Positions 9,075-32,628 of a stretch of DNA of 32,628 nucleotides are shown here, one piece after another. The position numbers and the translations under genes are program-made. The stretch is from Catajapyx aquilonaris (taxonomy: Eukaryota). A model generated the notes under the pieces. The model was not told the origin of the DNA and made no database searches. It worked only from the letters and a program-made list of their open reading frames with translations. Numbering within the stretch: position 1 is the stretch's first letter; every line of letters starts with the position of its first letter. The DNA lies in assembly GCA_000934665.2 (NCBI GenBank), contig JYFJ02004364.1, positions 1 through 32,628 on the forward strand, in the 5' to 3' direction.

Positions 9075-9447
9075 TACGGTCTTATTTACTTTTAATTTAC
9101 AGTTGGGAACAAGAACAAACATAGACTAGTTTGTCAAGCATGATCGGACTCTTGACAACAACAGTCGAACACAGCCGTTCATAGTTGTGACAGCCGACAG
9201 GAAGGAGTAGTAATGCTGTAGTGTAGAGTCCAGCACAGCAGCTCTTTATTATCTTTGAGAACGAGGCAGTACCCATACCCAGCCTCATCAAAGCTGTGGA
9301 TCTCTGCTATAAGTATTTTCATATACTACATGTTCACTATCCAATCCAGGTAAAAAAATGTGTTGTTATTCATAAAAACTGCTTTGTACAAGATGGTCAC
9401 AGAGACCAAAACATTACCTTCATGTGTTCTTGATAGCAATCAGTCCC

Positions 9448-9710
9448 CGGACACTTATACTACATTCTGAGCTTATCGCCTGCCGAGGGGTTTTGCAGCG
9501 GGTGCTCACCACCATGAGACATTTCCCGGAGCAATTTTGTGGCGACCCTTCCGGACTAGGCTGAACTTTATAGGTACGAAAGGGAAGCGCTACATGTGGG
9601 CCCAACATGGCCGCCGCTCCGGGAAATGTCTCGTGGCGCTCTCAGGTGAGCACCCGCTGCAAAACGCCCCGGCAGGGGGTGGGTGGGAGTGACCTAACCT
9701 GAGTCTTCTA
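9448..9710. mobile_element. palindromic non-autonomous element, internally deleted copy (same family as 13546-13910)
   Basis: Shares arms cctgccgggg-gttttgcag-ggtgctcacc...ggtgag-acc--ctgcaaaacgccccggcagg and similar flanks with the 13546-13910 copy. Confidence 0.75.
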
Positions 9711-9773
9711 AAACCATGATAGCAATACTCATCTCGATTTGTAAACATCCTACATTACATTACCATGATAAAA

Positions 9774-10330: not shown

Positions 10331-10913
10331 TAGTAAAACTTCTATGTCGAATCTCCATGTGACCGGAAAAAAAACTTCCAGTTACCGTATAGAAGATTCG
10401 AGTTAGAGAAGTTTGGATTTTTTAAAGCACATAACTCTGGAAGCCTACCTTTATATCCAGCGACAAAAGGTGTTCAAAACTTAAAAATAACGGTCATTGT
10501 TACGCTTACAATGTTCCTCGCTGTTTTGTTGTAAAAAGAAATCTCCGTTGTGGACATTTGCCTACTCTTAGATTCAAGGATTCAATTGTCACAATCGAGT
10601 CAAACACTTCTTTCGGTACATCTGGTAGACAGAGATCAGGAAATTGAGCCTTTCTGTACATGTGGCCTACTCTCGACCCTTCGGCTGGGAAATGAGAAAG
10701 TTCCGGTACTCGCCAACATGAACTTTGACTTAGGGAGACTGAAAATATATTGATATCCCATCGTAAGGCTCTGCCACCACTTCGAGTTATGGAGAACTTC
10801 GAGTTATAGAAATGCGAGTTAGGGAAGTTTATTTCCTATTATTTTACATTGTGACCAACCAAGCTCATCATTTTCTTCGACTTAGGGAAGTTCGACTTAT
10901 AGAAGTTTTACTG
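10331..10913. mobile_element. pogo/Tigger-like MITE
   Basis: Ends (c/t)AGTAAAACTTCTAT..TCGAA and TTCGACTTATAGAAGTTTTACTG|TA, with repeated TTCGAGTTA motifs. Confidence 0.75.
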
Positions 10914-11037: not shown

Positions 11038-11371
11038 TCACAATGTAAAATAATAGGAAATAAACTTCCCTAACTCGCATTTCTATAACTCGAAGTTCTC
11101 CATAACTCGAAGTGGTGGCAGAGCCTTACGATGGGATATCAATATATTTTCAGTCTCCCTAAGTCAAAGTTCATGTTGGCGAGTACCGGAACTTTCTCAT
11201 TTCCCAGCCGAAGGGTCGAGAGTAGGCCACATGTACAGAAAGGCTCAATTTCCTGATCTCAGTCTACCAGATGTACCGAAAGAAGTGTTTGACTCGATTG
11301 TGACAATTGAATCATTGAATCTAAGAGTAGGCAAATGTCCACAACGGAGATTTCTTTTTACAACAAAACAG
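11038..11371. repeat. inverted duplicate of 10521-10854
   Basis: 334-bp reverse complement with two mismatches seen by eye, separated by a 183-bp spacer. Confidence 0.92.
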
Positions 11372-11550: not shown

Positions 11551-13545
11551 CCCATTGGGAATCATATTAAACATAACAATAATGGTGTACATATTTCGTT
11601 TTAAAAAAGGTGAGTTTGAACAGGAGTTTTGCCTCAAGTATTGATTGTTCTTTGAATTGAGCAAGCAGGTCTTTTAAAAACAATTTAAAAACTATACACT
11701 AAAACAGCACCCACAATAATATTAATGTTCGGCAAATGCAAGGTTTTTTTATATCAAAAGTATACCGTAGTGTACTGGACTACATGCTCACATGACTTGC
11801 AGCAGAAAGTTTTCGAGTGGCATTCACATCACATGAGACGAACCTGCAACTGAGCTAGTATATGAAATTCAGTTAACAGGAATGGCAGAATCTTAACACA
11901 CATTGTCATTTGCCATAAAGCAAAATACTTGGCGCACCAGGTATAACCATAAACTAGTTGAGAAGTCAACCTGGTCGATGACAAACGTATGGCGCTGGCC
12001 GCCGGGGGAACAAGCTAAAATCTATTAGTAAAAATGAACAGCTCAATCGAGCACGGTGGCACCATACAACTATATTAAGAACATTATGCACAGCTTATGC
12101 TGAAGTTACAAACATATCTAGGGTGTTACTTGTTCAGACTTTGTACATAACAGTGGCTTAATTCAGAACTGCAACCAATTGTTGCTACAATTTTTTTTTT
12201 TTTTTTGAAAGACAGAAATCTTGTTGAACACAAAAACATACAAAGCAAGCACATCAGTGACGTGCTACATCAACTAGCAATAATCAAAATTATTTGTGGC
12301 AATAAGGTCACATGGGTCCCACATAATTCTATTGGTATCAACAAGTTTATGATGACCATTGAAGAATGAGAGAAGATGAGCATTGCATGGGTGAGATATG
12401 TGGATGAGCTTAGAGCATTTTGAAAAGAGGATGCTTTAGAGAAAGTGGATAAAGTACCTGTATTGTGTGGAACCCATAAAACTTGCCTGCAGAGCTGAGG
12501 TATATCGTTTGAAAAACACACGCTTCGGCATGTGGTTGTACTTGATACTTGGACAAAATAATTGATACGAAATTATTCCTCCATGTTACACACAAATGTC
12601 AGTACACATCTTACATTAAAACTTATGTAATTGTGCTCCCTTGAGGAGTTCTTTGCTCCACAGCATACCACTACAGCTGAATGGTAAAATTTAAAAACTG
12701 AGGAGAAAAAAAAAACATTGGCTACTTCTCGTTTCACTCGAGTTCCTTCTAAAAGTGACAAATAAGCTTAGTTAATAACATTCAAAAGGATTCCTCTTCA
12801 GATGAGGAAATCATCCTAATTTAGAGTCAAGACTCAAGAGTAGCACACAGCACATCACAAACACTACAGATGCATGGAACTGTCACATCTTACTGCTCAA
12901 TTCCGCTACTGCCACCATTTAGTCCAGGTACTTCACACTTCACTGAAGGTGTTAACTCTTCCTAGAGGTACTCACGCTGATTACTGAGGATGTGGTAACC
13001 CAATCAAAAACATCTATGCGCAATTCTGCACCATGCATGCTGGTGTCTTGTCCAAAAACCTTAAGGTATGCACCGTTTTTCAGTCATGTTTCCAAGAAGC
13101 ACTGTTTCAACTTTCAACCTCCTCAAATGCATGGTTCGGGGACAGGCACTATGAGGATCATAAAGTTGTCTCTCTGTGGCAACCGATTGGAGGTATGCCT
13201 AGTAGCTAAGCTTGGTGCAGGCACTGTATGTAGTCTAGCTTGGAGGGCAACACGTTCCATGACTCAAGAAGCTGCAAGAACCTCCGAGTTTAATCCCACC
13301 ATTCTTGGAGTGTGTCACCGGACAGCGCTGGCATGATGCTCTATAAAGTTGATGCAAAGTTAATTAGGTGACAACGTGCCGAGAAGGCAGGGTGAAAAAA
13401 TATATTTAGTGTGTTTCAGAATATAGTTAGCTTCAATATTGGTTGAAATGTCACCAACTCTCCTGCATCCAGTTGGTACGCTACAGGAAAAATTGTCTTG
13501 TACCCTGGAAAGCAGCGCAGCGCCTGGAAGCATTGTCTGAGCCAG

Positions 13546-13910
13546 CCTCCGGACACTACCTCTACGTTCTTATCTTATCACCTGCCGGGGCGTTTTGCAG
13601 GAGGTGCTCACCTGAGAGCGCCATGAGACCTTTCACTGCACTGCTATGTGGCGACCCTACCGGACTACGCTGAACTTTATAGGTACAAAAGGGAAGCGCT
13701 ACATTGGGGGACCCAACCTGGTCGCCGGCGGCCTTGCATGTTGGGCCCGCATGTAGCGCTTCCCTTTTGTACCTATAAAGTTCAGCGTAGTCCGGTAGGG
13801 TCGCCACATAGCAGTGCACGGAAAGGTCTCATGGCGCTCTCAGGTGAGAACCTCCTGCAAAACGCCCCGGCAGGGGGTAGGTGGGAGTGTCCAGACCTTA
13901 GTATTCTATG
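13546..13910. mobile_element. palindromic non-autonomous element
   Basis: ~135-bp near-perfect arms (13579-13715 vs 13739-13875). Additional degenerate outer inverted arms at ~13488-13540 and ~13935-13988. Confidence 0.8.
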
Positions 13911-14419
13911 ACCATGGTCTGTGCACAAGTTGATTTAGTCATGCTTCCACCTGCGCTGCTTGCCAGGATACTGCATAAGGCAATTTTTACTACTGTGCCT
14001 GGCAAATAGCCAAAAGAACCAAAGGATCACGTCTCTTGTGGAATTCCCCTTATGGCCGGCGCAAACGAGAAAATGTGGGAGGGAGGTAACTTGCACGCAC
14101 ATATCCAAGTACTCGTGTTGCCCGCTAGAGGGTACAAGTGTCGCGGCCAACCCAGCCCATGCTGGCATGCCAGCACGCAGATCGGCTCCAAATTTTTTGG
14201 CTGCAGGAAATCTGCACGCGCACATTGCCTGAGGAGAGCGCATGTGCTGTGCTGTCCTAGGTGGGCGGGTTGCTCCCAAGTTGCCTCCAAATTGCCCCGT
14301 TTGCGCCGCCGGCCCTTATTCACCATTCCCTAGCCCCTGAAGGGCAGCATCAGGACTTGAGGGTGTGATATTTCTGCTCATATGACTAAGAGTTAAATTT
14401 TGTAACACACAACATGTTC

Positions 14420-14572
14420 AAGCATGGTGATCAAGAAGAAAACGGGAGAACCCCGAGAAAACCCATGCAAACACAGCGAGAATCCAAAGAAACTCTTCCA
14501 CATAAGTGTCCTCCGCGTCCGACCCGGGGAACGAACTCGGGACCTTAGAGGTGGAATGCTGTGGCGTTAACC
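14420..14572 (-). mobile_element. truncated tRNA-derived SINE (same family as 19491-19791)
   Basis: aaacgggagaaccccgagaaaaccca-gc-aacac...gacccgggga-cgaactcgggaccttag-ggtggaa is shared with the 19491-19791 copy. Confidence 0.8.
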
Positions 14573-15795
14573 CAGGGCCGGATCTAGGGGGGGGGGGGGG
14601 NNNNGGGGGCGGCATGTCTTGCCCCTTGAAATGTACTTGTTGCTTAAAATAATATTTTAACCCAATTATTTGCTCAACCCCTGAAAGCAAAACTTTGAAC
14701 AACAGGCAACTGGCCATATTTGGCTCTTTTTTTGGGATATTTTTTGAACTTTTTGAGGCAATTTCTGGACTTTTTGGGCCTATTCTGGACCTATTTCCTT
14801 CAGATGCATTTGTTGTGCTCCTGAAAGGACCAAAATCCTTCAGAAGTAATACGACATAGTTTCCGCTTTCCCTAATGAAAATCAAGAAAAATATTTGGGG
14901 ACATACTGTGCAAGAGTGGAAACGGGCTATGAACGGTAGAGTTCAAAGCAAGTCATACTTGCTGGCACTTTGATTTGTATTTTTCCCACATTTTGTGATT
15001 TTCTGTCAGTTCATCTTTGTCATTAGATTTTTTCTCTGGTTTGTGACCTTATATTTATACTTTAGGCCTATAAAAATTTGTGTCTAGCTTTTTGATTTTC
15101 TGTAACATTATCTTCCGTATAACTCTCGCAAATAAGTAAATTTTTGTGAGTATATATTTTAGGTTTTTTCCCATGTATTGAAGGGTTTATTTGTGCCAAT
15201 TTCAGGTATTTTCTTGCCTAAAAATGCGGGCTTTACTTATTACATTAGTACAGTAATTCCAGCCAGTACTGTGCTCCACGAAGCATCTACGAAAAGATTG
15301 GAAAAAACAATAAATGTGTGAGCTTCCAAATGGCGAAATAATTTAGAGAAATTCTAGATTCCGACATAGCCTACCTGGAGATATCTTAAATTAGTTCTAA
15401 GTGCCTCCACTATATTTTTCTTGATAATTTCAGTTGTTATTTTCTTGAATAAGAATTTCACGAAAAAAATTATATCGAAAACTTTTAGGTTGTAAGCCCA
15501 TACTCGGCTGTGTCGCAAAGGTATAGGCCCGTCTGACATCGCAGGAGTATTGAACGCTTAATTGGTTTGAGTCATTTGACATACAGTAAGATTACGCCAT
15601 AAAATATTTAGAATTTTGCAACTAAGAACTCACTATCAGAATTTTGGTGCCTGGTACAGTTCTTTAAATTGCCTGAAGTAGGTAAGTTACTGAACATAAT
15701 ACATGCATGCCAAAAAAAAGTAAAATGAAGTGACGCTTTCAAAATGCGTGGGTGGTCGGGTGGGAGCGGCACCAAAGGCCTTTGCCCCCCCTAGA
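14573..15795. mobile_element. hAT-like element ends (right end truncated; interior probably composite)
   Basis: Left end CAGGGCCGGATCTAGGGGGG..., partial right end TTTGCCCCCCCTAGA. No TSD is visible, and NNN lies in the G-run at 14601-14603. Confidence 0.4.
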
Positions 15796-15821
15796 CTAGA
15801 AATTGTTATTTAAAAACTCAC

Positions 15822-15890
15822 GGGTCCTGCTTCCTTCTTCTCTATGGCCGGCTGGATGAGTAATTGGGTGTCGCGGAGTACAATCATCTC
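15822..15890 (-). CDS. bol: boule-like copy 1, exon B (RRM C-terminal strands): EMIVLRDTQLLIQPAIEKKEAGP
   Basis: Acceptor cttgtttcccttcgcatcacAG and donor CCC|GTGAGT. 69 nt, phase 0/0. Resembles the Boule segment ECVVLRDRKLNIAPAIKKQ and continues exon A in frame. Confidence 0.85.
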
Positions 15891-16008
15891 CTGTGATGCG
15901 AAGGGAAACAAGAAGTAATCCTATAATCATGCAATATGGGAACCTCATGCAACTATGCCACACTCTGCAATAATGTAAGCCTGCAGTTGTACCAGATATT
16001 TGATAAAA

Positions 16009-16290
16009 TCTATATAAATAAAGAAGGATGTGATCTGTCTGTGTCCGTCCGCCCGCCAGTGCCATTTGTGGTCCTACTCCAACACCTTCAACCTCTCCCG
16101 CCTGTATAACACCAACCTGCCATCTGAGGTCCACCCCAAACACCTCCCACCTCTCCCGTTCTTCCGACCTGGCCTTCCTAAAAGTGTCATGGCGGCTCTC
16201 TGTGCGTGAAAATTTTTACGGGGCTACAGGTAGGTGTTATCCCTTCATTCATTTCTTCCCGGGCAACGCCGCGCCGGGTGCCGCAGCTAG
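16009..16290 (+). mobile_element. non-autonomous Helitron in the copy 1 intron
   Basis: A|TCTATATAAATAAA start, subterminal hairpin CCCGGGCAACGCC...GCCGGG and CTAG|T end. Absent at the paralogous position in copy 3 (~32290). Confidence 0.85.
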
Positions 16291-16539
16291 TACTATATAA
16301 AGAAACTCAAAACCACCAAAAATGAACTTTGTGAGTTTTTCTAGTCTGCAGGCAACACAGTAGCCTATATTACAGTATAACAGCATCACAAGTATGATGT
16401 AGCCTACATCATAATTTTTAACATTTTACTCTATGATAGGCCTCCTTGCTTTATACAGTGATTTACAGTGGTACGTGAACACAATTATTTTGGGGTTACG
16501 CGAAAGATATCGTGCAACAGTCTCTACATATATCTAATT

Positions 16540-19293: not shown

Positions 19294-19485
19294 TAGTATT
19301 TGATATCAGAAAAAACACGATCGAAAATGATAGCTCCTCAACAAAACCGTCTAAGTACGTAAAAAAAACCTGTCTCCCCATGTTTTAGAGGTCGCTGATT
19401 TCAATTTTCAGGTTATTTTGAACCTGGACATACAGGGTGTACCAAAAAGTCGCCATGGAATTCAAGAACTTCTAGACAAAAACAC

Positions 19486-19558
<73 letters not shown>

Positions 19559-20720
19559 GATACCCCGTGATAGGCCCCTTGGGCCTCTTAGGGGATCATC
19601 TTTTGAATAACCGATTTTAATCATTTTGCCTGTAATGTGATGGATTTTGATAGTGGGAGGAAACGGGAGAACCCCGAGAAAACCCACGCGAACACGGAGA
19701 GAACCCATCGAAACTCTATCCACATAAGTATCCTCCGTCCGACCCGGGGATCGAACTCGGGACCTTAGCGGTGGAAGGCTGTCGACCAGTGAAAAACACT
19801 ATAAGTAGGTGTAAATAACAATTCCCGATGTTTCCGCGGTCACTGATTTTGATTTCAAGGTTATTTTGAACCAAGACCTACAGGGTGTACCGAAAACACT
19901 GTCGAATTTGTATAGGATAAATGGTATAAATGATTGCAAATAATGTTCTTAATAAAATGAGAGGGTTACTAAGAGAATTAAATCATTTGTTTATTTACTA
20001 ATTATTTTTAATTTTGATAAAATAAAATTTTAAAAATAGCTTGATTTTTTTTTTGGTGTTCGTTTGATAAATCCTATCATGAAAAAGGCGCGACACGCAA
20101 CGACATCATGAAATTGCTGTTATGGTGACCTTCAGGATGTACTGTAACTAGAATATCATAATCCAGCTGCTAATATCTGCTAGCCCCAATTTTAGAAATG
20201 AAAACACCTGAGAGGTGCATGCGAGGGAGGTTCTATTTATGACCTAAACTGAATTTCAAAGATCATTAATTAATAACTTCTACATTTTTCAGAAGCACAG
20301 TGTGTTTTCTAAAGTTCTGAGTGCCTACATAACAAAAAACTACATAATTTAAACAGCAATCGCGATTTTGTGCAGAAACATCATTTTCAACTAATTCCAC
20401 TATTTATTCCATGAGCTCTCACATTTGATGGTGTTTTTGATACAGGGGTGTAGGTCCGGGTTCATTATAGCTTAAAAATCAAAATCAGTGTTCCCCAACA
20501 CATTGGATTTTTTTTTCACCTATCCGTACTTATAATGTAGATTCTACAAGTTCTTAAATTCGGTGGTCTTTTATGGTACACCCTGTATGTCCTGGTTCAA
20601 AATAACCTAAAAATTGAAATCAGCGACCCCTAAAACATGGGGAGACAGGTGTTTTACGTACTTAGACGGTTTAGTTGAGGAGCTATCATTTTCGATTGTT
20701 TTTTCTGATATCAAACACTG
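19294..20720. mobile_element. non-autonomous Tc1/mariner-type element with long (~300 bp) subrepeated TIRs, in the copy 1 intron
   Basis: (t)AGTATTTGATATCAGAAAAAAC...GTTTTTTCTGATATCAAACACTG|TA. Internal direct repeats ggttattttgaacc..gac.tacagggtgtacc. A SINE is inserted in the left arm. Confidence 0.82.
19491..19791 (-). mobile_element. 5'-truncated tRNA-derived SINE with (TTA)n tail
   Basis: B box GAGTTCGATCCC and (TAA)n on the plus strand at 19488-19556. 13-bp TSD AAAAACACTATAA at 19478-19490 and 19792-19804. Confidence 0.9.
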
Positions 20721-20828: not shown

Positions 20829-21188
20829 CTCTCCGAGAACCCTCTGAGCTTCGCTGTCTGATTCGAAGGTAACAAATCCATACCCCTTCTTAACCCCAGC
20901 TCGGTCATAAATTATCTTGACTCCCGTGATGACACCAAAGCAAGCGAAGCATGCGGTCAGTTCAGTCTTAGTAGTCCCGGCAGGAAGCCCTCCTACGAAT
21001 ACACGGTTCGGGACCAAGGTCCCGTACGTAGGAACTTTCTTGGCAGCAGCCGCTGCTGCAGTACCATAATTTCCTCCACTACCTCTTCCGCTGCTCCCTC
21101 CAGTGCTAATTTCGCTCGGTGGGGCCATTCCACTGGATGTCTGGTTCATAGAGAGCGGGTTGGTCTGGCTATTCCAGCATGAATCCGG
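20829..21188 (-). CDS. bol: boule/DAZ-family RNA-binding protein, copy 1, exon A (N-terminus plus most of RRM)
   Basis: Encodes ...KKVPTYGTLVPNRVFVGGL...DRAGVKKGYGFVTFESDSEAQRVLGE, matching the Boule signatures YGTLxPNRxFVGG (RNP2) and DRAGVxKGYGFVTF (RNP1). Acceptor ctgatctgttgttctttcAG, donor GAG|GTGAGC. 360 nt, open throughout, candidate ATG at 21149. The symbol denotes the family; orthology is not established. Confidence 0.92.
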
Positions 21189-21240
21189 CTGAAAGAACAA
21201 CAGATCAGTGTTCGTATTTACAAGTTCAATATTGATTGAG

Positions 21241-21600
21241 GTTCATTAGGCCTGAACAATGAGAAGCAAGAGCATTTCATCAGACTGAGTGAGTACAGTA
21301 TGTGAGAATGATAATGAGTCACTTGGCAATTATTATTGGTAGACCTATCTAAGGCAATAAGAAGTAGCCTACTGGAATAAAATAAGTTTTTAAAAAAAAT
21401 ACAGCCTATTGCATAACTTGCAGTGCGTATAAACCATAGATATCTATTGTTGTGCATTGTCATTGACGTCATGATGTCATTGACGATGTGACAGCGCAAT
21501 CCTGTCCTTTACGCTGCTAGAAACATGTGCTGGTGCAGTCCTCAGACTGCCAATGTTGATTCGGGACTGTTTAGCCCTATATTGTTCCCAAACGGACGTT
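21241..21600 (-). promoter_or_regulatory. conserved upstream non-coding blocks of copy 1 (putative promoter / 5' UTR intron)
   Basis: Aligns by eye with 25245-25500 and 25965-26050 upstream of copy 2 (for example gctgctag-aac--gtgctgg-gcagt and tgttgatt-gg-actgttta-cc-t). Function is inferred from position only. Confidence 0.4.
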
Positions 21601-21699: not shown

Positions 21700-22092
21700 T
21701 GTATTTGTCAATGCCGTTTTACGATTTCTAATTATGGGGAAGTTGAAAGGGGTGTTATGTACAAGATGAAGCCTCGCACCTAGGCAGACCTGAGAGAACC
21801 ATCTAAGCAGCTATTGCAACCATTGATGAAGCGACGCGACGCTGCATAGGACGTTTGACAGTTTGAAGCATTGCAGTGAGTTAGTCTGTGTCTGGACCAC
21901 GGCTGGATGATGTCGACGGTGGCCACTTACACAGCACTTACTGTGATGTAGTCACCTTTCACAACATACGTGGAATCACTGGAATGTTGTAAACAAAATA
22001 TAGCCTACCGTACACTGTCTTTATTTTCTTGCGTTCTGTGGGGGTTAGGAAGCTACTGTACATTCGGGTCAACTACCTCGTGAATCTACCTG
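21700..22092 (+). mobile_element. Tc1/mariner fossil (transposase C-terminus plus right TIR), paralogous to 31091-31620
   Basis: Degenerate DF.LWG.LK..VYK.KPRT..DL...AIATIDE...GGH..HLL*. The TIR ggtcaactacc..tgaatc..cctg is shared with the copy 3 region. Confidence 0.65.
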
Positions 22093-22193
22093 GTATTAAT
22101 TCCAGTCACCACCGTCAAATTATTATCATCATTGTCATGTCATCAGGAGGGGGAAATGAACCCACACGCCCACGATCATTCAAGTTAGGCGCC

Positions 22194-22471
22194 TTAGTCG
22201 TGCGGGATTTTCCTCCCTTCCAGATAGATGCTTGCCCAACATTTCCATTGGTGCAACCTAAACTTTGGCATTTTCTGACTGCGAATCTAAAAGTCACTTA
22301 CGATTATGATTGCATTTTTACAAATGTTATTGAAAACTTCTAAAATATATTGTTCTCAGTCCTGGGAATGTAAAGTACCAAGGCACGTCACAGTTAGCTT
22401 ACCCACATGCATAATAAACCATAAAATATTTCACAACAACAATAATAATTGCTCAGTAACATTGATTGCCT
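22194..22471 (-). CDS. candidate 3' exons of copy 2 (22403-22471 and 22194-22286)
   Basis: Acceptor tttttgctcctctAG, donor TGG|GTAAGC and second acceptor gacttttAG are all shared with copy 3. Phase-0 reading gives RQSMLLSNYYCCCEIFYGLLCMW + IRSQKMPKFRLHQWKCWASIYLEGRKIPHD*. The frame is not conserved in copy 3, so this may be largely UTR. Confidence 0.35.
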
Positions 22472-22492
22472 CTAGAGGAGCAAAAACAATTA

Positions 22493-23000: not shown

Positions 23001-24143
23001 CACTATGCAACAAAATTTGACTTTTTTTTGTCCATAGAAATTCATCGGCATATACGTGTTCCTTAGGTCACAAGTAACTTATAATGGGCATTCATTTTGT
23101 CTTTGATTTGTTTTTGACCTTTGGGCAGTCCAAAAACCAAAATTCTCAAATATAGCAGTTTTTCCGAATCAAGTGGGCCTAAATGTTGCTAGACGATCTC
23201 GGATTTTCCTGAGCATAATCACAGCTGTACACACCTATGCCGTAACACTGCTTATCAAGTTTCAGCCAAATTGCGAAATATCGCGGTGAGGGAAAAAATC
23301 GCGAAATTATGAAAACATGGGTTTTTTTGGATAATTTTTTTCGGTTATTGGAAGTGGTCAAAACCCAATCAACATATACGGTACATCAAATGAAAGAGAA
23401 ACGTGAGTAGAATGCGCCTATGGAATTTGTGTTTCTCGAAAATGCACTCAGAAAAAAAGTATGGCATTCAATCGGTCACATGCTCAGTAACATGTCCAAG
23501 TGTTTAGACCCCAACAATTAGTGATGTATTTGCGTAAGAGAAGCCATATTTGGTGACAGGAGTTGTGACCCATACCAATAAGATTCAATATGCTCAGTTT
23601 TAATCCTGGGTCATGCATGGCTCGCGAGAAAATAATAGATATGTTTCTCCGAATTACCATTAACTTTAATGGAGCCAAATTCGTGGAAATGTGACTGGCG
23701 AAATGCCACACATGCTTTTATGAGTGCATTGTCCAGAAAAACAAATTCCATGGGCGCATTCTACTCGCGTTTCTCTTTTATTTGATGTATATGTTGATTG
23801 GGTTTTGACAACTTCAAATAACCGGAAAAAAAATCATAAAAAAAACCATTTTCAAAATTTCGCGATTTTTTTCCCTCCCCATGGTATATCGAAATTTGGC
23901 TGTAACTGGATATGCAGTGTTACGGCATTGTGTACAGCTGTGATTATTTTCAGAAAAATCCGAGATGATCTAGCAACATTTAGGCCCACCTGATTGGGAA
24001 AAACTGCTATATTTGAGGATTTTGGTTTTTTGACTGCTCCGAGGTCAAAAACAAATCGAAGACAATCAATATGAGTTACGAGTGGCCTAAGGAGCATGGA
24101 AATAGCAATAAATTTCCATGGACAAATATCGTGTTGCATAATG
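23001..24143. mobile_element. CMC-like (CACTA/Transib-type termini) non-autonomous element with ~450-bp TIRs
   Basis: CACTATGCAACA...TGTTGCATAATG, flanked by TAATAA on both sides (TSD length ambiguous). Long inverted arms. Absent from copy 3. Confidence 0.78.
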
Positions 24144-24194: not shown

Positions 24195-24260
24195 GTTTGC
24201 GGTTCTTGAAAATCCCGGTGAAATTATTAGATTGCACCCTCCCCATCGTATGCGGCCAAT
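24195..24260 (-). CDS. bol: boule-like copy 2, exon B: IGRIRWGGCNLIISPGFSRTAN
   Basis: Acceptor ccttttatatcccatcacctcatAG and donor AAC|GTGAGT. 66 nt, phase 0/0, no stops. Upstream intron is homologous to that of exon B in copies 1 and 3, and the L-x-I-x-P pattern is kept. Confidence 0.75.
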
Positions 24261-24815
24261 CTATGAGGTGATGGGATATAAAAGGTAATCTTGTAATCAT
24301 GCAACTGGAACTTCTTGCAAATATGCCACACTCTGCATTTAAATGAAACAGAAATTGAGTAATGCTGTCAAATAACTCAAAGCTGCCGAAAGAGGCCTTT
24401 CTGGGGTTTTCTCGTGTTCATATGATATAATAACTTACCAAGTAAAAGGCATAAAATGTACCCACCCAGTAAACAGAAACCCTGCATAAAGACACCATTA
24501 CGGGGACTGATATGCACCCTTCAAATTCATAAGGCCTGTCCCATCTACTCCCTTGCATAGTCTGACACTAACATTGCCCTGCAAAGAAGTTGCTATACGT
24601 ATACCATACAGGAACTCTGCCGCGAATTAAAGTTGGGCTCTACAAAAAATATCACTATTTAGACTATCACAAGTCCCCAGTATATAATATTGTATTACAA
24701 TTTAGTAATAGATACATTGAAGTAATGCAGATGGATAGTGGGGTTTCTCCTATTTCCATGGACTATAATGGCTAAGTGCAATTCCAAACAATATGGGCTA
24801 AAGAATGAAGCTCAC

Positions 24816-25004
24816 CCATTTTATGAGCCTCCAGGCCTCTTCCTCTGTTGCGAAGGTAACAAACCCGTACCCCATCGAAACCCCAGCTCGGCCAGAAATG
24901 ATCTTCACTCCCTTGATTACACCAAAGGGAGCAAAAAGACTAGTTAATTCCATTTCTGTCGTTTTGGGAGTCAGGTTTCCTACAAATACTCTGTTCAGGA
25001 ACAT
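24816..25004 (-). CDS. bol: boule-like copy 2, exon A coding part (RRM); the exon may start at 25106 or 25198
   Basis: MFLNRVFVGNL...SGRAGVSMGYGFVTFATEEEAWRLIKW, 37/63 aa identical to copy 1. Same donor context GTGAGCTTCATTCTTTA as copy 1. The frame is open upstream to a TAA at ~25137-25139. Confidence 0.85.
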
Positions 25005-26476
25005 TGTGACCGTTCTGTCGTCACTATCAGTTGCAGGAGAGGCTTCATGCAGTTCACAACCTCTGCTGCTCCTACCAGAGATGGACGACGCTATTTCTCT
25101 GGTTACCTGGTTGATGAAATAAATAAATAAATAATTTTAATTTAATTTTAATCAATATAAATAGACAGAATGGGTATTGGGAACTTAAAGCCCAAATACT
25201 GAAACAACAGCAGGTGTTCACAAGTCTAAATGCTTGATATTTATTAGTCTGAACAATGAGATATTTCATCAGACTGGGTCAAGTATTTATAGCTACAGTA
25301 TGTGAGAATAATAATGAGTCAATTTGTGATTATGGGTAGGCCTATCTATTAAATAGACCTACCCATAATCACAAATTGACTAATTATTAAGTTCTAAGGC
25401 AATAATGAGAACTCCTGGAATAAAATTAATTTATTATATTACCGCCTAGTGCATAGCTCTCTTGCAACTTGCAGTGTGTATCATGTATAAACCATGATAT
25501 ATCTTGCTATTTATATTTTTAGAGTGCGCAGAAGTAAAAAAATAAAAAATACGGTAGCATGTCATGCCCCTAGGTAGGCCTACTCACCTTCAAGGCAAGG
25601 CCCAGTCCATCTTCTCATTGGGTTCAAATAACACGTAGGCCTACAATGGTAATAATCTCTTACACTCCTTTATTGCCTCTCTACACTATATTGTCCTGTG
25701 TCTCCAAAATTTTAATGCAATCATGTCAAATAGTCAATTATGAGACCCTACCATTGTAAAGATGAAATCTTTGTGCAGGACGCCTACAAGTAGTTCGTCT
25801 TTTTCCAGATTAACGACGCGTTTCGCGACAAAAGTTTATTACTTTATTTCCCTGCGATATGCGTTACTGTATTTATGCTACTGTCTACTGAGCAGCCTTA
25901 ATCCTTGGCGATGCGACGTGACACACAGTAGTATAGTAGCCCTGTAGACTTACTTTATCGATTCAGTGCTGCTAGGAACGCGTGCTGGGGCAGTGGACTC
26001 CCATTGTTGATTTCGGAACTGTTTACCCTTATTGTTTCCAAACTGACAGGGACAGCAGAGCAGGCCAATCCAAAATGTCAGGTCGCGTGTTTCAAAACCG
26101 GAAGAAATACTGTGACTTATTTCTGTCGGTTATGGTGCTACCACCTGTCATAGAATGGGGCCCTAGCCTTGGCCTGGGATTTGGGTAATTTGTACACGAA
26201 TAGCTCATTCATGCATATAAACCTGCATTCCACCACTTTTCGGCATCAAAATGTCTAATTGATTAATTATCGGGGGTTTATTAAAAGTCACTCGCAAATT
26301 GGCGGGAAAAACGGGGGCATGGCCTAAAAAGCGCATTCCCACTCCTGCCTAACCAAGCCAACAACAGTGACGTCAGCAGACCGTTGCCTGGCGGTCGTTC
26401 GATTCTGCTTATTTACTGGCGGTCCTGTTCGATTCCGTTGTTAGGCAACAAACACAGGCACCTTAGACTGTATATA

Positions 26477-27060
26477 CAGGGTGTTAATGAATTCAATCGA
26501 CAAACTTGTAGGGTTGATAGAGTATAGAGGGGACCAAGACAAACATTTTTGACATAGGAAACCGTGTCCGGAAACGCCATCTGGAGGGGGTTCATAGACA
26601 AGGAACGGGTGCGCTCGGACGCGTCACGCGAGAGGCGCTAGTCGAGCGGACTGTTTTTTTGATAGATGGCGCGCAGGTGTTGCCAGGTTATGGCGTATCG
26701 TCGTGTCGTTGTAAGTAAACACAAACGCGATACGCCATAACCTGGCAACAACAGAATAACCGCTGTTGACTATCCGCGCGTCTCCTAGGAGGCGGACTTT
26801 AGTTGCTAGATGACTCTGTTGTTGCCACGTTATGGCACATCCAGGCACATCGCATCGTTACTATCCGAGCGCCATCTATCAACAAAACAATCCGCTCACC
26901 TAGCACCTCTCGCGTGACGCGTCTGAGCGCACCGCCCGTTCCTTGTCTATGAACCCCCTCTAGATGGCGTTTCCGGACACGGTTTCCTATGTCAAAAATG
27001 TTTGTCTTGGTCCCCTCTATTACCCCTACAAGTTTGTCGATTGAGTTCATTAACACCCTG
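26477..27060. mobile_element. Tc1/mariner-type MITE
   Basis: TA|CAGGGTGTTAATGAA...TTCATTAACACCCTG|TA, with ~195-bp TIRs and an internal hairpin at ~26678-26750. Confidence 0.9.
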
Positions 27061-27605
27061 TATACCAGTAGACGCTCCCCTCCCGTTTACGAGCAAGCGC
27101 AAAAGTGATGCCAACATCTCCGAGGGGGGGATCACGTGACTTAGGGCAAAAGGGAGGCGGGAAGACGAAATTAACATGGCGCCTTATGGGGATTCCGACT
27201 ATCTTGGCGCCGTCACTGTGAGGCGCATATTGGGACTAAAAATATGCAATGGGTACCAAATGATAGCTCCATTCATGCCCCGTCTCATGCCGTACATCTC
27301 CATCCGAGAGGTTGAGCGGGGAAGGACATATAAAATCCTACACTTTGTCATTGTTTCTCGCCGTAAGTGCAGTTTGTGTCACTACATCACTCAAACACCA
27401 CATTAAAATGTTCCAAATTTTAATATGTTGTACCTGATTGTACAGACAGTCTCCCTCTACATGTTTCACCAACTCGGGGCCGATTATCGAGGTTAATTTA
27501 ATTATGCGAAAATAAAAAAGTGAGCATATGAGTGATATCAAGGTGATATCGGAACTTAGGGCAGCTTCAGTTAGGTACTGATTGATCAAAGTATGTGCAA
27601 AATCT

Positions 27606-27701
<96 letters not shown>

Positions 27702-27745
27702 GCAGCAGCAGCAGCAATAGTAGCAGTAATAATAATAATTGTGCC

Positions 27746-27823
<78 letters not shown>
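27606..27823. repeat. inverted microsatellite pair (AAT)n...(AGC)n...(TAT)n
   Basis: Directly visible. Extends the foldback stem almost to a gtgcc loop at ~27741. Confidence 0.95.
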
Positions 27824-27825
<2 letters not shown>

Positions 27826-28116
27826 GTTTTGCACGGACTTTGATCAATCAGTACCTAACTGAAGCTGCCCTAAGTTCCGATATCACTCATATGCTCACTT
27901 TTTTATTTTCGCATAATTAAATCAACCTCGATAATCGGCCCCGAGTTGGTGAAACATGCAGAGGGAGACTGTCTGTACAACATATTAAAATTTGGAACAT
28001 TTTTATGTGGTTGTTTGAGTGATGTAGTGACACAAACTGCACTTACGGCGAGAAACAATGACAAAGTGTAGGATTTTATATGTCCTTCCCCGCTCAACCT
28101 CTCAGATGGAGATGTA

Positions 28117-29438: not shown

Positions 29439-30059
29439 TACAGCATGAGACGGGGCATGAGTGGAGCTATCATTTGGTAACCATTGCATATTTTTAGTCC
29501 CAATAGGCGCCTCACAGTGACGGCGCAAAGATAGTCGGAATCCCCATAAGGCGCCATGTTAATTTCGTCTTCCCGCCTCCCTGTTGCCCTAAGTCACGTG
29601 ATCCCCCCCCCCCCCTCGGAGATGTTGACATCACTTTTGAGAGGGAGAGGGAGCGTCTACTGGTATATATGGTCTAAGACAGGAACAAAGCAGCCCGGGT
29701 GCATTTACTGCCTCTGCACCGATCTGTTTAGCAACACTGACGTCAGAGGGTAATACGATACCGTATAATTATTATGATCTTAGACTTAGATCGATCATAG
29801 CTCGAAGACTAATGTGTATTTCTTCAAACAAAAAACACCAAAATTTATTTAAAAATAGTGATGATTTTTTACATGGGTTTGTAAAATGAAGGCTAGGACC
29901 CCATTTGGTGTCTCTCACACGCAAAGGGTGTTACGGAACACTAAGCTTGCCAGGCAATCACACATGCATTATCCACACGCATGGCGGAAGGTGATCAACA
30001 AAATAATGCACAGGGTGAATGTAAAGTCAGGACACATAGGTAAATGGATTGTATCGATA

Positions 30060-31090: not shown

Positions 31091-31620
31091 CAGTGTGATT
31101 CACTAGGTAGTTGACCCAAGTAAATGTGTGTAGTTTTCCTAGTAATACACGGAAACAGATAGATATTACGCCAATCCCTTCAACATTTCCTTCGCCGGGA
31201 GGTGTTACGTGACGCGGCTCATGAGTCACCAAAAGTCATGGCGCAAATTATCGCGAGAGACTGGATGTTCCTTTTCAAAGCGTCAAAGGGTCTTCGTCCG
31301 TATCGTGTGACGACTTTTACTTGTGGGGAGATTTAAAGGGGACTGTGTACAAGACGAAACCTCGCACCTTGGCAGACATGGAGAGGAACATTGAAGACGC
31401 TATTTAAACCATTGATCGATTGATGGAGCGAAGTTTGGTGTCCATAGATATTAAAGGCTGTGTCTGGACATCGGCGCGGCGGCCATTTTTAGCACTCACT
31501 GTGATCACTCGTCGCCTTTAGCATCATACGTGGTATGTTTGAAACAAAATACAGACTTTGCTTGCGTTCTATGCGGGTTAGGAAGTTATATTCAGGTCAA
31601 CTACCAAATGAATCACCCTG
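31091..31620 (+). mobile_element. Tc1/mariner fossil with both TIRs
   Basis: TA|CAGTGTGATTCACTAGGTAGTTGACC...GGTCAACTACCAAATGAATCACCCTG. Remnant DFYLWGDLKGTVYKTKPRTLADMERNIEDAI. Confidence 0.75.
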
Positions 31621-31982
31621 GTATTACAAGTAATACCAATCACCACGATCGTCAAATTATTATCATCACTGACGTCATCAGCAGGGGAGAAATGAACCCA
31701 CTCGCTCACGATAATTCAAGTTTGGTGGGATTTTTCTCCCTTCCGGAGAGATGTTTGCCCACATGCCAATTAGTGCAACCCGTGCACTTTTGCATTTACT
31801 GACTGTGGATCTAAAAACCACTTGACTGCACACTTACAAATTGTTGAAAACTGCTGAAATTGTCCTCAGTCCTGGGAGTTTACCCAGGCACGCCACCGTT
31901 AACTTACCAATATGCATAAACCATATAAGCATTTTACAACAATAATACCTTAATGGCACAGTGACATTGAGTTGCCTCTACT
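31621..31982 (-). other. candidate 3' exons / 3' UTR of copy 3, paralogous to 22093-22471
   Basis: Clear nucleotide similarity with indels to copy 2. Acceptors at 31982/31977 and 31810, donor at 31908. The tested splice paths hit stops early (SRGNSMSLCH*, IHSQ*). Confidence 0.4.
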
Positions 31983-32103
31983 CTAGAGGAGCAAAAAAAA
32001 ACAAAAAAACAATTGGTCCAGGTTTTCCTGCCTCAACACACCGACACAAATATATGGACATGATCTTATTTAATAAGCCGGAAATTGTTATTTAAAAACT
32101 CAC

Positions 32104-32178
32104 GGGCGCCGCTTCCGATCCCTGGGTCATCCTGGCCGGACCAATGGTAATTTTGTTGTTGTCCATGAAGATGAATTC
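32104..32178 (-). CDS. bol: boule-like copy 3, exon B: EFIFMDNNKITIGPARMTQGSEAAP
   Basis: Acceptor cttgtattccttctcatcacAG and donor CCC|GTGAGT. 75 nt, phase 0/0, with an IGPA motif. Flanking intron aligns closely with copy 1. Exon A is presumably outside the window. Confidence 0.8.
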
Positions 32179-32628
32179 CTGTGATGAGAAGGAATACAAG
32201 AAGAAATCCTATAATATGAAATATTGGAACCTCATGCAAATATCTCACACTGTGCAATAATGTAGGCCTACAGTACTACCCAAAATAGGATAATACCGCA
32301 AATAACCTCAAATCCTCCAAAACGAACTTTGTGGGTTTCTCTGGTCTGCAGGCAAAAGGTAGTGTCCGGGTTGCGCGCACCTAGGCAACGCCATTGGCAA
32401 CACTGCATGCATTTCGTTCAAAATCGATACCATCCGATACCACTGACATCTTTTAGTATTTTTAATTGTTGCAGTCATCTTGCAGCAAATACGGTACTGT
32501 AATGGGCTCTTAGGTACAATAAAAATCGAGTGTACCGAGCAGAGAAGTCCACAGTGGTTCATACCAGCTAGCAAGCAACTGAGACTGCGACTCAGTTTCC
32601 GTGCTACCGAAAATAAAGTCAACATAAT

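Follow-up and report, generated by a model that had tools for sequence, protein, structure and literature searches.

Three tandem boule/DAZ-like units in Catajapyx aquilonaris with an exon B less alike between copies than the neighbouring intron

Boule counts among the reproductive genes that are held under strong purifying selection: its junctions are conserved and the Drosophila gene has a Ka/Ks below 0.1 (PMC2904765). Lineage-specific paralogues of boule are known from the flatworm Macrostomum lignano, where macbol1-3 are described as having diverged in their roles in male and female gametogenesis (PMC3158854). The stretch of Catajapyx aquilonaris DNA analysed here, called the window below (the 32,628 nucleotides of contig JYFJ02004364.1), is AT-rich and repeat-rich eukaryotic DNA, whose minus strand carries tandem boule/DAZ-like units (n=3), made of an exon A and an exon B; the exon A that belongs to the third exon B, B3, lies past the end of the window. 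Like canonical Boule, the units have a single RRM, an RNP2 motif VFVGG and an RNP1 motif KGYGFVTF (both carried by exon A1), DAZL as best structure match and an RRM-splitting intron at the same place as in the predicted proteins P0003 and P0019. Unlike canonical Boule, they occur as three tandem copies, with at most about 60% identity and an omega of 0.37-1. They resemble macbol1-3 in that several boule-derived genes are found in one invertebrate genome, but differ from what is described of the latter in being tandem, in lying in an arthropod-type genome, in having a much more diverged beta4 and in being known from sequence alone.

Exons that diverge faster than the introns beside them are familiar from venom phospholipase A2 and conotoxin genes, which encode secreted toxins and combine accelerated exons with conserved introns and a dN/dS of about 1 or above. 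Here too, the exons of the paralogues, synonymous sites included, are more diverged than the introns, but omega does not exceed about 1 and the product would be an intracellular RRM protein. Conserved intronic flanks are reportedly a property of regulated cassette exons, and conserved regulated exons are usually well conserved themselves. The marks of regulated exons include a 3n length and conserved flanking intron, according to one account (PMC1635713). Exon B resembles exons of this kind in its 3n length and 0-0 phase, in the roughly 100-240 nt of conserved sequence upstream and in a conserved donor flank, so that conservation is found on both sides (77-87% in the upstream block; 23/23 and 16/23 in the donor flank). 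It differs in being poorly conserved itself (30-54% identity across the pairs of copies), in the shortness of the conservation downstream and in that paralogues, not orthologues, are compared. A peak of divergence at opsin exon 5 is also said to have been reported. Exon 5 in the red/green opsin pair is more diverged than the flanking introns, which is ascribed to selection opposing homogenising conversion (PMC3924837). The present units share with that case the tandem paralogues and an exon more diverged than its flanking introns. Compared with what is described of the opsins, however, their divergence is much deeper, its borders are razor sharp, the comparison is within paralogues only and every coding part has diverged, whereas one exon and two key sites are concerned in the opsins.

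Two RRM exons, A1 and A2, stand in minus-strand stop-to-stop frames of the window (Table 1). Pfam RRM_1 matches A1 with E=1.6e-13 and A2 with E=4.4e-16, and the best single-domain PDB match of A1 is DAZL (E=8e-15). The closest database proteins are arthropod boule or boule-like proteins with at most about 60% identity; neither word-index nor full HMMER protein searches returned a relative above about 60%. The RRM parts of A1 and A2 are identical at 37/60 residues and 121/180 nucleotides. All three B exons are bordered by AG before and GTGAGT after, and all are in phase 0-0. The preliminary description gave their lengths as 69, 66 and 75 nt, all multiples of three and free of stops, and this is confirmed: frame 0 is open in B1, B2 and B3, while frame 2 holds one or two stops in each, and the chance that the three exons stay stop-free is 0.39 x 0.25 x 0.33. 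B1 matches the boule stretch ECIVLRERKLNIAPAIKKQ in tblastn (11/19 identities, E=0.036). Against PDB, B1 has no match and B3 only chance matches to leucine-rich repeats. The predicted proteins of the homologues P0003 and P0019 have a read-through intron at the place of the A/B junction, with RLQQE before it and AECIVLRE after it. Because of the match of B1 to boule and the position of this junction, the window can be taken to hold three tandem boule-derived units, in which exon B is predicted to encode beta4 of the RRM and the C-terminal tail. The anatomy of the array, like the counts and rate ratios given below, can be read directly off the DNA. A 221-aa predicted protein of another organism, P0119, contains two near-identical copies of a boule-like RRM exon, each followed by the same read-through intron; thus, tandem repetition of a boule-like RRM exon occurs elsewhere too.

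Table 1. Exons and non-coding blocks of the three units (positions are those of the window)
Feature	Position	Strand	Remarks
Exon A, copy 1 (A1)	about 20829-21188	-	N-terminus and RRM beta1 to alpha2; RRM part 20829-21008
Borders of exon A1	acceptor ends 21189; ATG 21147-21149; donor after 20829	-	predicted from the sequence
Exon A, copy 2 (A2), RRM part	24816-24995	-	Pfam RRM_1; RNP1 and RNP2 kept
Exon B, copy 1 (B1)	15822-15890	-	69 nt, phase 0-0; encodes EMIVLRDTQLLIQPAIEKKEAGP (RRM beta4 and tail)
Exon B, copy 2 (B2)	24195-24260	-	66 nt; encodes IGRIRWGGCNLIISPGFSRTAN
Exon B, copy 3 (B3)	32104-32178	-	75 nt; encodes EFIFMDNNKITIGPARMTQGSEAAP
Proximal intron block, copy 1	15891-16006	-	just upstream of B1; 96/115 to copy 3 over 116 nt
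Donor-side intron flank, copy 1	15799-15821	-	23/23 to 32081-32103
Copy-1-specific insertion	16007-16298		292 nt, GC-rich; splits the intron block; absent from copies 2 and 3
Distal part of intron block, copy 1	16299-16355	-	84% to 32300-32355, across the insertion
Intron block, copy 2	24261-24425	-	24420-24261 aligns with 32350-32179; 24348-24261 aligns with 15978-15891
Intron block, copy 3	32179-32355	-	matches copies 1 and 2
Donor-side intron flank, copy 3	32081-32103	-	23/23 to copy 1
Non-coding block before exon A1	21189-21351	-	matches about 25180-25348 before A2; includes the shared acceptor
Further upstream block, copy 1	21513-21597	-	shared with 25968-26047; 80% by BLAST; 63 matches, 20 mismatches
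Non-coding stretch downstream of copy 2	21701-22489	-	collinear with 31290-32000
Non-coding stretch downstream of copy 3	31290-32000	-	collinear with 21701-22489

When eight boule-type proteins were run against the window with tblastn, only exons A and B were matched; neither downstream exons nor the DAZ motif, which is of low complexity, were found. A candidate short exon after B2 and B3, with a pyrimidine tract and AG about 100 nt downstream, was rejected, its frame not being kept between the copies. Copies 1 and 2 have in common the acceptor before exon A (24996-25348 compared with 21009-21351). In copy 2, stops follow this acceptor and the only ATG stands three codons before the RRM, so that the N-terminal region encoded by copy 1 has probably been lost from copy 2.

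The remainder of the window contains several repeats. An inverted repeat at 10521-10854 and 11038-11371, with 334-nt arms that are 99.4% identical and about 180 nt apart, represents a foldback element of very recent origin or else an artefact of the assembly. Another, at 23027-23481 and 23689-24126 (arms of about 450 nt, 82%), lies about 70 nt downstream of B2, has no equivalent in copy 3 and probably represents an element of foldback or MITE-like type. Rfam, at the gathering score, detects nothing in the whole window except a weak tRNA-like match at 1050-1122 on the plus strand (32 bits for a gathering score of 29), for which ARAGORN makes no call and which is possibly a tRNA-derived SINE. 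Dispersed repeats of 78-90% identity, direct and inverted, pair 9441-9718 with 13543-13916, 14437-14562 with 19658-19782, 19295-19476 with 20543-20719 and 27055-27294 with 29439-29673; some of them lie inside the 4.9-kb intron between A1 and B1. Long ATT/AAT microsatellites occupy about 1326-1400, 19500-19560 and 27600-27850, the last with an embedded GCA run. The minus-strand stop-to-stop frame 14421-14942 contains an X, which means that there is at least one N near 14.6 kb.

The contrast between exon B and its intron had been pointed out in the preliminary description for copies 1 and 3, and its counts are exactly reproduced. A codon alignment of B1 with B3 gives 38/69 identical nucleotides, 8/23 identical residues and one in-frame 6-nt indel; by codon position, 12, 15 and 11 of 23 are identical at positions 1, 2 and 3. 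The adjacent intron, for which about 13 differences in about 97 nt had been claimed, indeed shows 13 (15891-15987 against 32179-32274: of 97 columns, 84 are matches, 12 are mismatches and one is a gap). On the other side of the exon, copies 1 and 3 do not differ in the 23 intron bases that follow the donor (23/23), and the homology of these two copies ends abruptly past this flank; the same 23 nt are 16/23 between copies 1 and 2. Copy 2 also has the upstream block, with an identity of 81% to that of copy 1 and 77% to that of copy 3. All three pairs display the contrast when matches and mismatches are compared between flanks and exon B: 117/48 against 17/40 for copies 1 and 2 (Fisher p=1e-7), 163/37 against 37/32 for copies 1 and 3 (p=1.2e-5) and 112/57 against 27/35 for copies 2 and 3 (p=2e-3).

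Upstream of exon B, similarity is lost at about the same point in all three copies, whichever pair is considered. The similarity of copies 1 and 3 is an island that extends from exon B over about 240 nt in the upstream and 23 nt in the downstream direction; nothing else aligns by collinear BLAST. The insertion that splits the block of copy 1 has similar short direct repeats at its two ends, which look like a target-site duplication. Around exon A, where copies 1 and 2 can be compared, about 160 nt before the exon are alignable (K2P 0.19 over 139 aligned bases) and no difference is seen in the 17 intron bases that follow the donor (17/17). The central part of the intron between exons A and B, with a length of 355 nt in copy 2, 4.6 kb in copy 1 and 273 nt or more in copy 3, is not aligned by BLAST in any pair. 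The further upstream block, found between copies 1 and 2, is 85 nt long, stands about 325-410 nt before the acceptor of exon A1 and could be either a promoter or a first exon without coding sequence.

Another stretch is shared downstream of copies 2 and 3. Over its 813 alignment columns there are 546 matches against 141 mismatches, and the number of gap events is 24 (K 0.24), windows along it being about 80-90% identical except for 21813-21887, at 36-48%; BLAST between units finds no counterpart after copy 1. It looks like neutral DNA and is far more similar between the two copies than the B2 and B3 exons or even their near flanks. This was interpreted as meaning that the ancestry of the array is mosaic, with at least one later exchange or partial re-duplication.

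The intron block itself was examined for signs of function. Rfam returned nothing at E<=1 for 15700-16400, RNAalifold found no compensatory pairs in the block, and single folds compared with shuffled sequences gave z values of +0.5, -2.7 and +0.5, two of the three copies being no better than the shuffles. Coding on either strand was considered and rejected: no frame of copy 1 is free of stops, and the sole short frame does not survive a 1-nt indel in copy 3. The RBFOX-type motif TGCATG has two sites in the block of copy 1 and a single one in that of copy 2 as in that of copy 3; with 36 sites against 24 +/- 4.6 expected, it is frequent in the whole window, and it serves as no more than a lead. 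A metagenome scan with a degenerate consensus of the block gave no matches.

What has become of the protein is best seen by comparison with ten canonical boule proteins, from nine arthropods and an oyster. Among themselves these have a mean identity of 75% in the part corresponding to exon A and 78% in that corresponding to exon B. Mean identity to this set is 57% for A1 and 60% for A2 (62% between A1 and A2), and 47%, 32% and 19% for B1, B3 and B2, respectively. A1 and A2 share several derived residues, which puts them on a branch of their own. The stretch RKLNIAPAIKKQ, almost invariant in canonical boule, is not kept in the window copies, and none of the B exons matches the beta4/C-terminal signature (K/R)KLN(I/V)APAI(K/R)KQ. 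The only core positions of exon B that survive are I, L/I, I and P, the second being L in B2. The basic residue of PAI(K/R)KQ, which we take to be R115 of DAZL, is replaced by E, M and S in the window copies. In DAZL, the R115G change makes RNA binding defective or abolishes it (PMC4966976). The omega of 0.37-1 found here, against a Ka/Ks below 0.1 in Drosophila Boule, likewise suggests that most of the constraint of the family has been shed in these copies, a loss that both relaxation and adaptation would fit.

The rates of substitution, all of them estimated from 23-60 codons and three sequences, bear on whether the exon is fast or the flanks are slow. For B1 and B3, NG86 and LWL85 give dN 0.57-0.62, dS about 1.0 and omega 0.54-0.62; the values obtained by maximum likelihood on exon B are unstable, the exon being too short. 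B2 and B3 give an omega of about 1.0-1.5 on saturated counts. For exon A of copies 1 and 2, three methods agree on dN 0.33-0.37, dS 0.80-0.90 and omega 0.37-0.46. Pairwise dN/dS is significantly above 1 for neither exon. The K2P distances of the flanks are 0.16-0.19 between copies 1 and 3, 0.19-0.23 between 1 and 2 and 0.45 between 2 and 3. In codons that keep the same residue, 17 differences are counted for 29.3 synonymous sites of exon A (copies 1 and 2), compared with 87/306 in non-coding DNA (p=0.0014), and 4 for 6.0 synonymous sites of exon B (copies 1 and 3), compared with 37/200 in the flanks (p=0.015). The flanks of these tandem paralogues are thus less diverged than the linked synonymous sites (K 0.16-0.23 vs dS 0.8-1.0), at face value 4-6 times less, as in divergence peaks of the opsin or RHCE-RHD type. 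The fourfold sites of exon A, taken alone, are not significantly above flank level (8/21 differences), which makes the size of this effect uncertain. No significant heterogeneity of synonymous change was seen along exon A (p=0.32). At the non-synonymous sites of exon B, copies 1 and 3 have 23 differences for 54.5 sites, compared with 37/200 in the flanks (p=0.0005), about 3 times more; the ratio of exon B dN to flank K comes to about 3 in each of the three pairs. With neutral flanks, dN/K would be about 1.6 for exon A and, against a K of 0.24, about 7 for exon B of copies 2 and 3. Since both values are implausible, the former for an RRM core that keeps 37/60 residues, the contrast is read mainly as a matter of slow flanks. 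In the proximal block, 3 changes are specific to copy 1, 6 to copy 3 and 16 to copy 2, and the variable sites are evenly spread, the longest invariant run being 6 (P>=0.98) among 48 runs. In short, the flanks look slow, whereas a fast exon B is not demonstrable from these data and positive selection is unproven.

These figures lead us to part with the interpretation of the preliminary description, in which an exon less alike than its intron was attributed to positive selection on the C-terminal strands of the RRM. The exons do appear to encode beta4 of a DAZ-family RRM whose usual conservation is lost, but the omega of 0.54-0.62 for B1 and B3 speaks against selection of that kind, and within the exons synonymous sites have diverged as much as non-synonymous ones. 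To a large extent, both observations that the preliminary description had named as refuting its view are made here: dS is near saturation with omega below 1, and, for copies 1 and 3, the high intron identity is restricted to a short island with nothing else alignable around it. Gene conversion restricted to the intron, the alternative it had named, stays alive as the main rival, possible if on the whole doubtful.

The explanation that we tentatively prefer, without holding it to be established, is that of old paralogues in which exon B has lost its constraint while purifying selection acts on the splice-proximal intron, copies 2 and 3 having later exchanged sequence at least once. The array would be made up of three or more RRM genes derived from boule, old and lineage-specific, with a synonymous divergence of about 0.8-1 or more. 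Exon B would have lost the constraint of canonical boule almost wholly, save at four core positions, and would change at about the synonymous rate (omega 0.5-1). The splice-adjacent intron, over about 170-240 nt ahead of the acceptor and some 20 nt behind each donor, would evolve 4-6 times more slowly, mainly because sequence that serves splicing and cis-regulation is under purifying selection; this would be most marked in copy 1 and least so in copy 2. Lastly, one or more later exchanges between copies 2 and 3 would have made about 900 nt downstream of exon B alike again. We infer a function of the flanks, expression of the genes and an old age of the array. In favour of constraint, dS is high by three methods and synonymous differences exceed those of the flanks; with the exception of 21513-21597 and of the stretch that copies 2 and 3 share downstream, non-coding DNA can be aligned only close to the exons; similarity changes razor-sharply where exon meets intron, with 17/17 at the donor of exon A (copies 1 and 2, the most distant pair) and 23/23 at that of exon B (copies 1 and 3); the outer boundary upstream of exon B is common to all pairs; and the lineage rates agree, 3, 6 and 16 flank changes going with 47%, 32% and 19% identity to boule in copies 1, 3 and 2. 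All three B exons, moreover, keep a 3n length, an open frame and their splice sites. Against it, the selection needed is strong (a rate reduced by about 80% over 170-240 nt), the variable sites of the block are spread evenly instead of grouping into motifs, and the 292-nt insertion sits in the block of copy 1, the best-kept copy; there is no conserved RNA fold and no Rfam match, TGCATG is common in the window, and exon B itself is poorly kept. Nor can constraint explain the 813 columns shared downstream of copies 2 and 3, with their K of 0.24 and 24 indels; this stretch shows that exchange takes place in the array, and thereby raises the odds that the flanks of exon B were homogenised as well.

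Interlocus gene conversion would account for the contrast if it homogenised the non-coding DNA while selection for difference between the paralogues purged the exons of conversions, as in the opsins; we regard this as a possibility, not as a likelihood. The exons and their linked synonymous sites would then retain an old divergence, and the flanks would date the last exchange, a part of the scheme that we hold with equal reserve. It agrees with synonymous sites 4-6 times more diverged than every alignable non-coding piece, with flank differences spread evenly, as expected from a more recent common ancestor, with the K of 0.24 next to saturated exons in copies 2 and 3, which indicates mosaic ancestry, and with the way in which the identity of this pair climbs away from exon B (70% in the first 23 nt, then 51-64%, 74% and 80-90%). 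The same pattern of exon 5 and introns in the red and green opsins is proposed as a signature of selection against conversion (PMC3924837). However, the tracts would have to stop repeatedly at the exon borders, where 17/17 and 23/23 identical intron bases lie beside diverged exon ends, and conversion could not act on stretches as short as 17-23 nt by themselves. The flank of copies 1 and 3 is most alike nearest the exon, the opposite of the gradient expected; flank and exon divergence scale together over the three pairs, which a shared genealogy predicts and independent dates of conversion do not; and similarity is lost at the same upstream point in all three pairs. Positive or diversifying selection on the RNA-contact strand of exon B in young duplicates, with neutral flanks (K about 0.2), seems improbable to us. 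So does a variant in which a hypervariability focused on the exon also raises synonymous change; we give it little credence. The excess of non-synonymous change in exon B, about 3 times the flanks (p=0.0005), the nearly equal spread of B1/B3 differences over the three codon positions and the fact that a segment near-invariant in canonical boule is the most changed part here all speak for such selection. So do the residues E, M and S at the presumed equivalent of R115 of DAZL, where R115G is defective in RNA binding (PMC4966976), and the fourfold count of 8/21 in exon A, not significantly above the flanks. Yet omega is below or near 1 in the exons, with dS at 0.8-1.0 or saturated; selection on the protein leaves the synonymous excess over the flanks unexplained (p=0.0014, p=0.015); young duplicates should align through the whole intron, the middle of which does not; and neutral flanks force the dN/K of about 1.6 for exon A and about 7 for exon B of copies 2 and 3. 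The fit is therefore poorest for positive selection alone with neutral flanks, on account of the synonymous divergence and the unalignable middle of the intron. Least credible of all to us is pseudogene decay, whether of all copies or at any rate of copies 2 and 3, which would leave the pattern without functional meaning. B2 is barely recognisable (19% to canonical boule), copy 2 has probably lost the N-terminal coding stretch that copy 1 shows, and downstream exons and the DAZ motif were not found with tblastn and eight proteins, but neutral decay cannot push the divergence of an exon above that of its own flanks. Furthermore, all three copies keep the open frame, the 3n length, the AG/GTGAGT borders and the four core residues, and exon A of copy 2 keeps RNP1 and RNP2, with its RRM_1 match at E=4.4e-16.

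As a matter of method, the locus warns that an exon less alike than its intron is not by itself evidence of positive selection, since slow or homogenised flanks give the same picture. If exchange keeps the regulatory and intronic DNA alike while selection holds apart the RNA-contact strand (beta4 and tail, with the presumed equivalent of R115 of DAZL), which we consider unlikely, the array would be a germ-line RNA-binding set with diversified targets, and an opsin-like peak of divergence would exist in an extremely conserved family. Tandem copies that keep the RRM core and the flanks but rewrite the beta4/C-terminal segment would show a conserved germ-line regulator spawning fast-changing offshoots.
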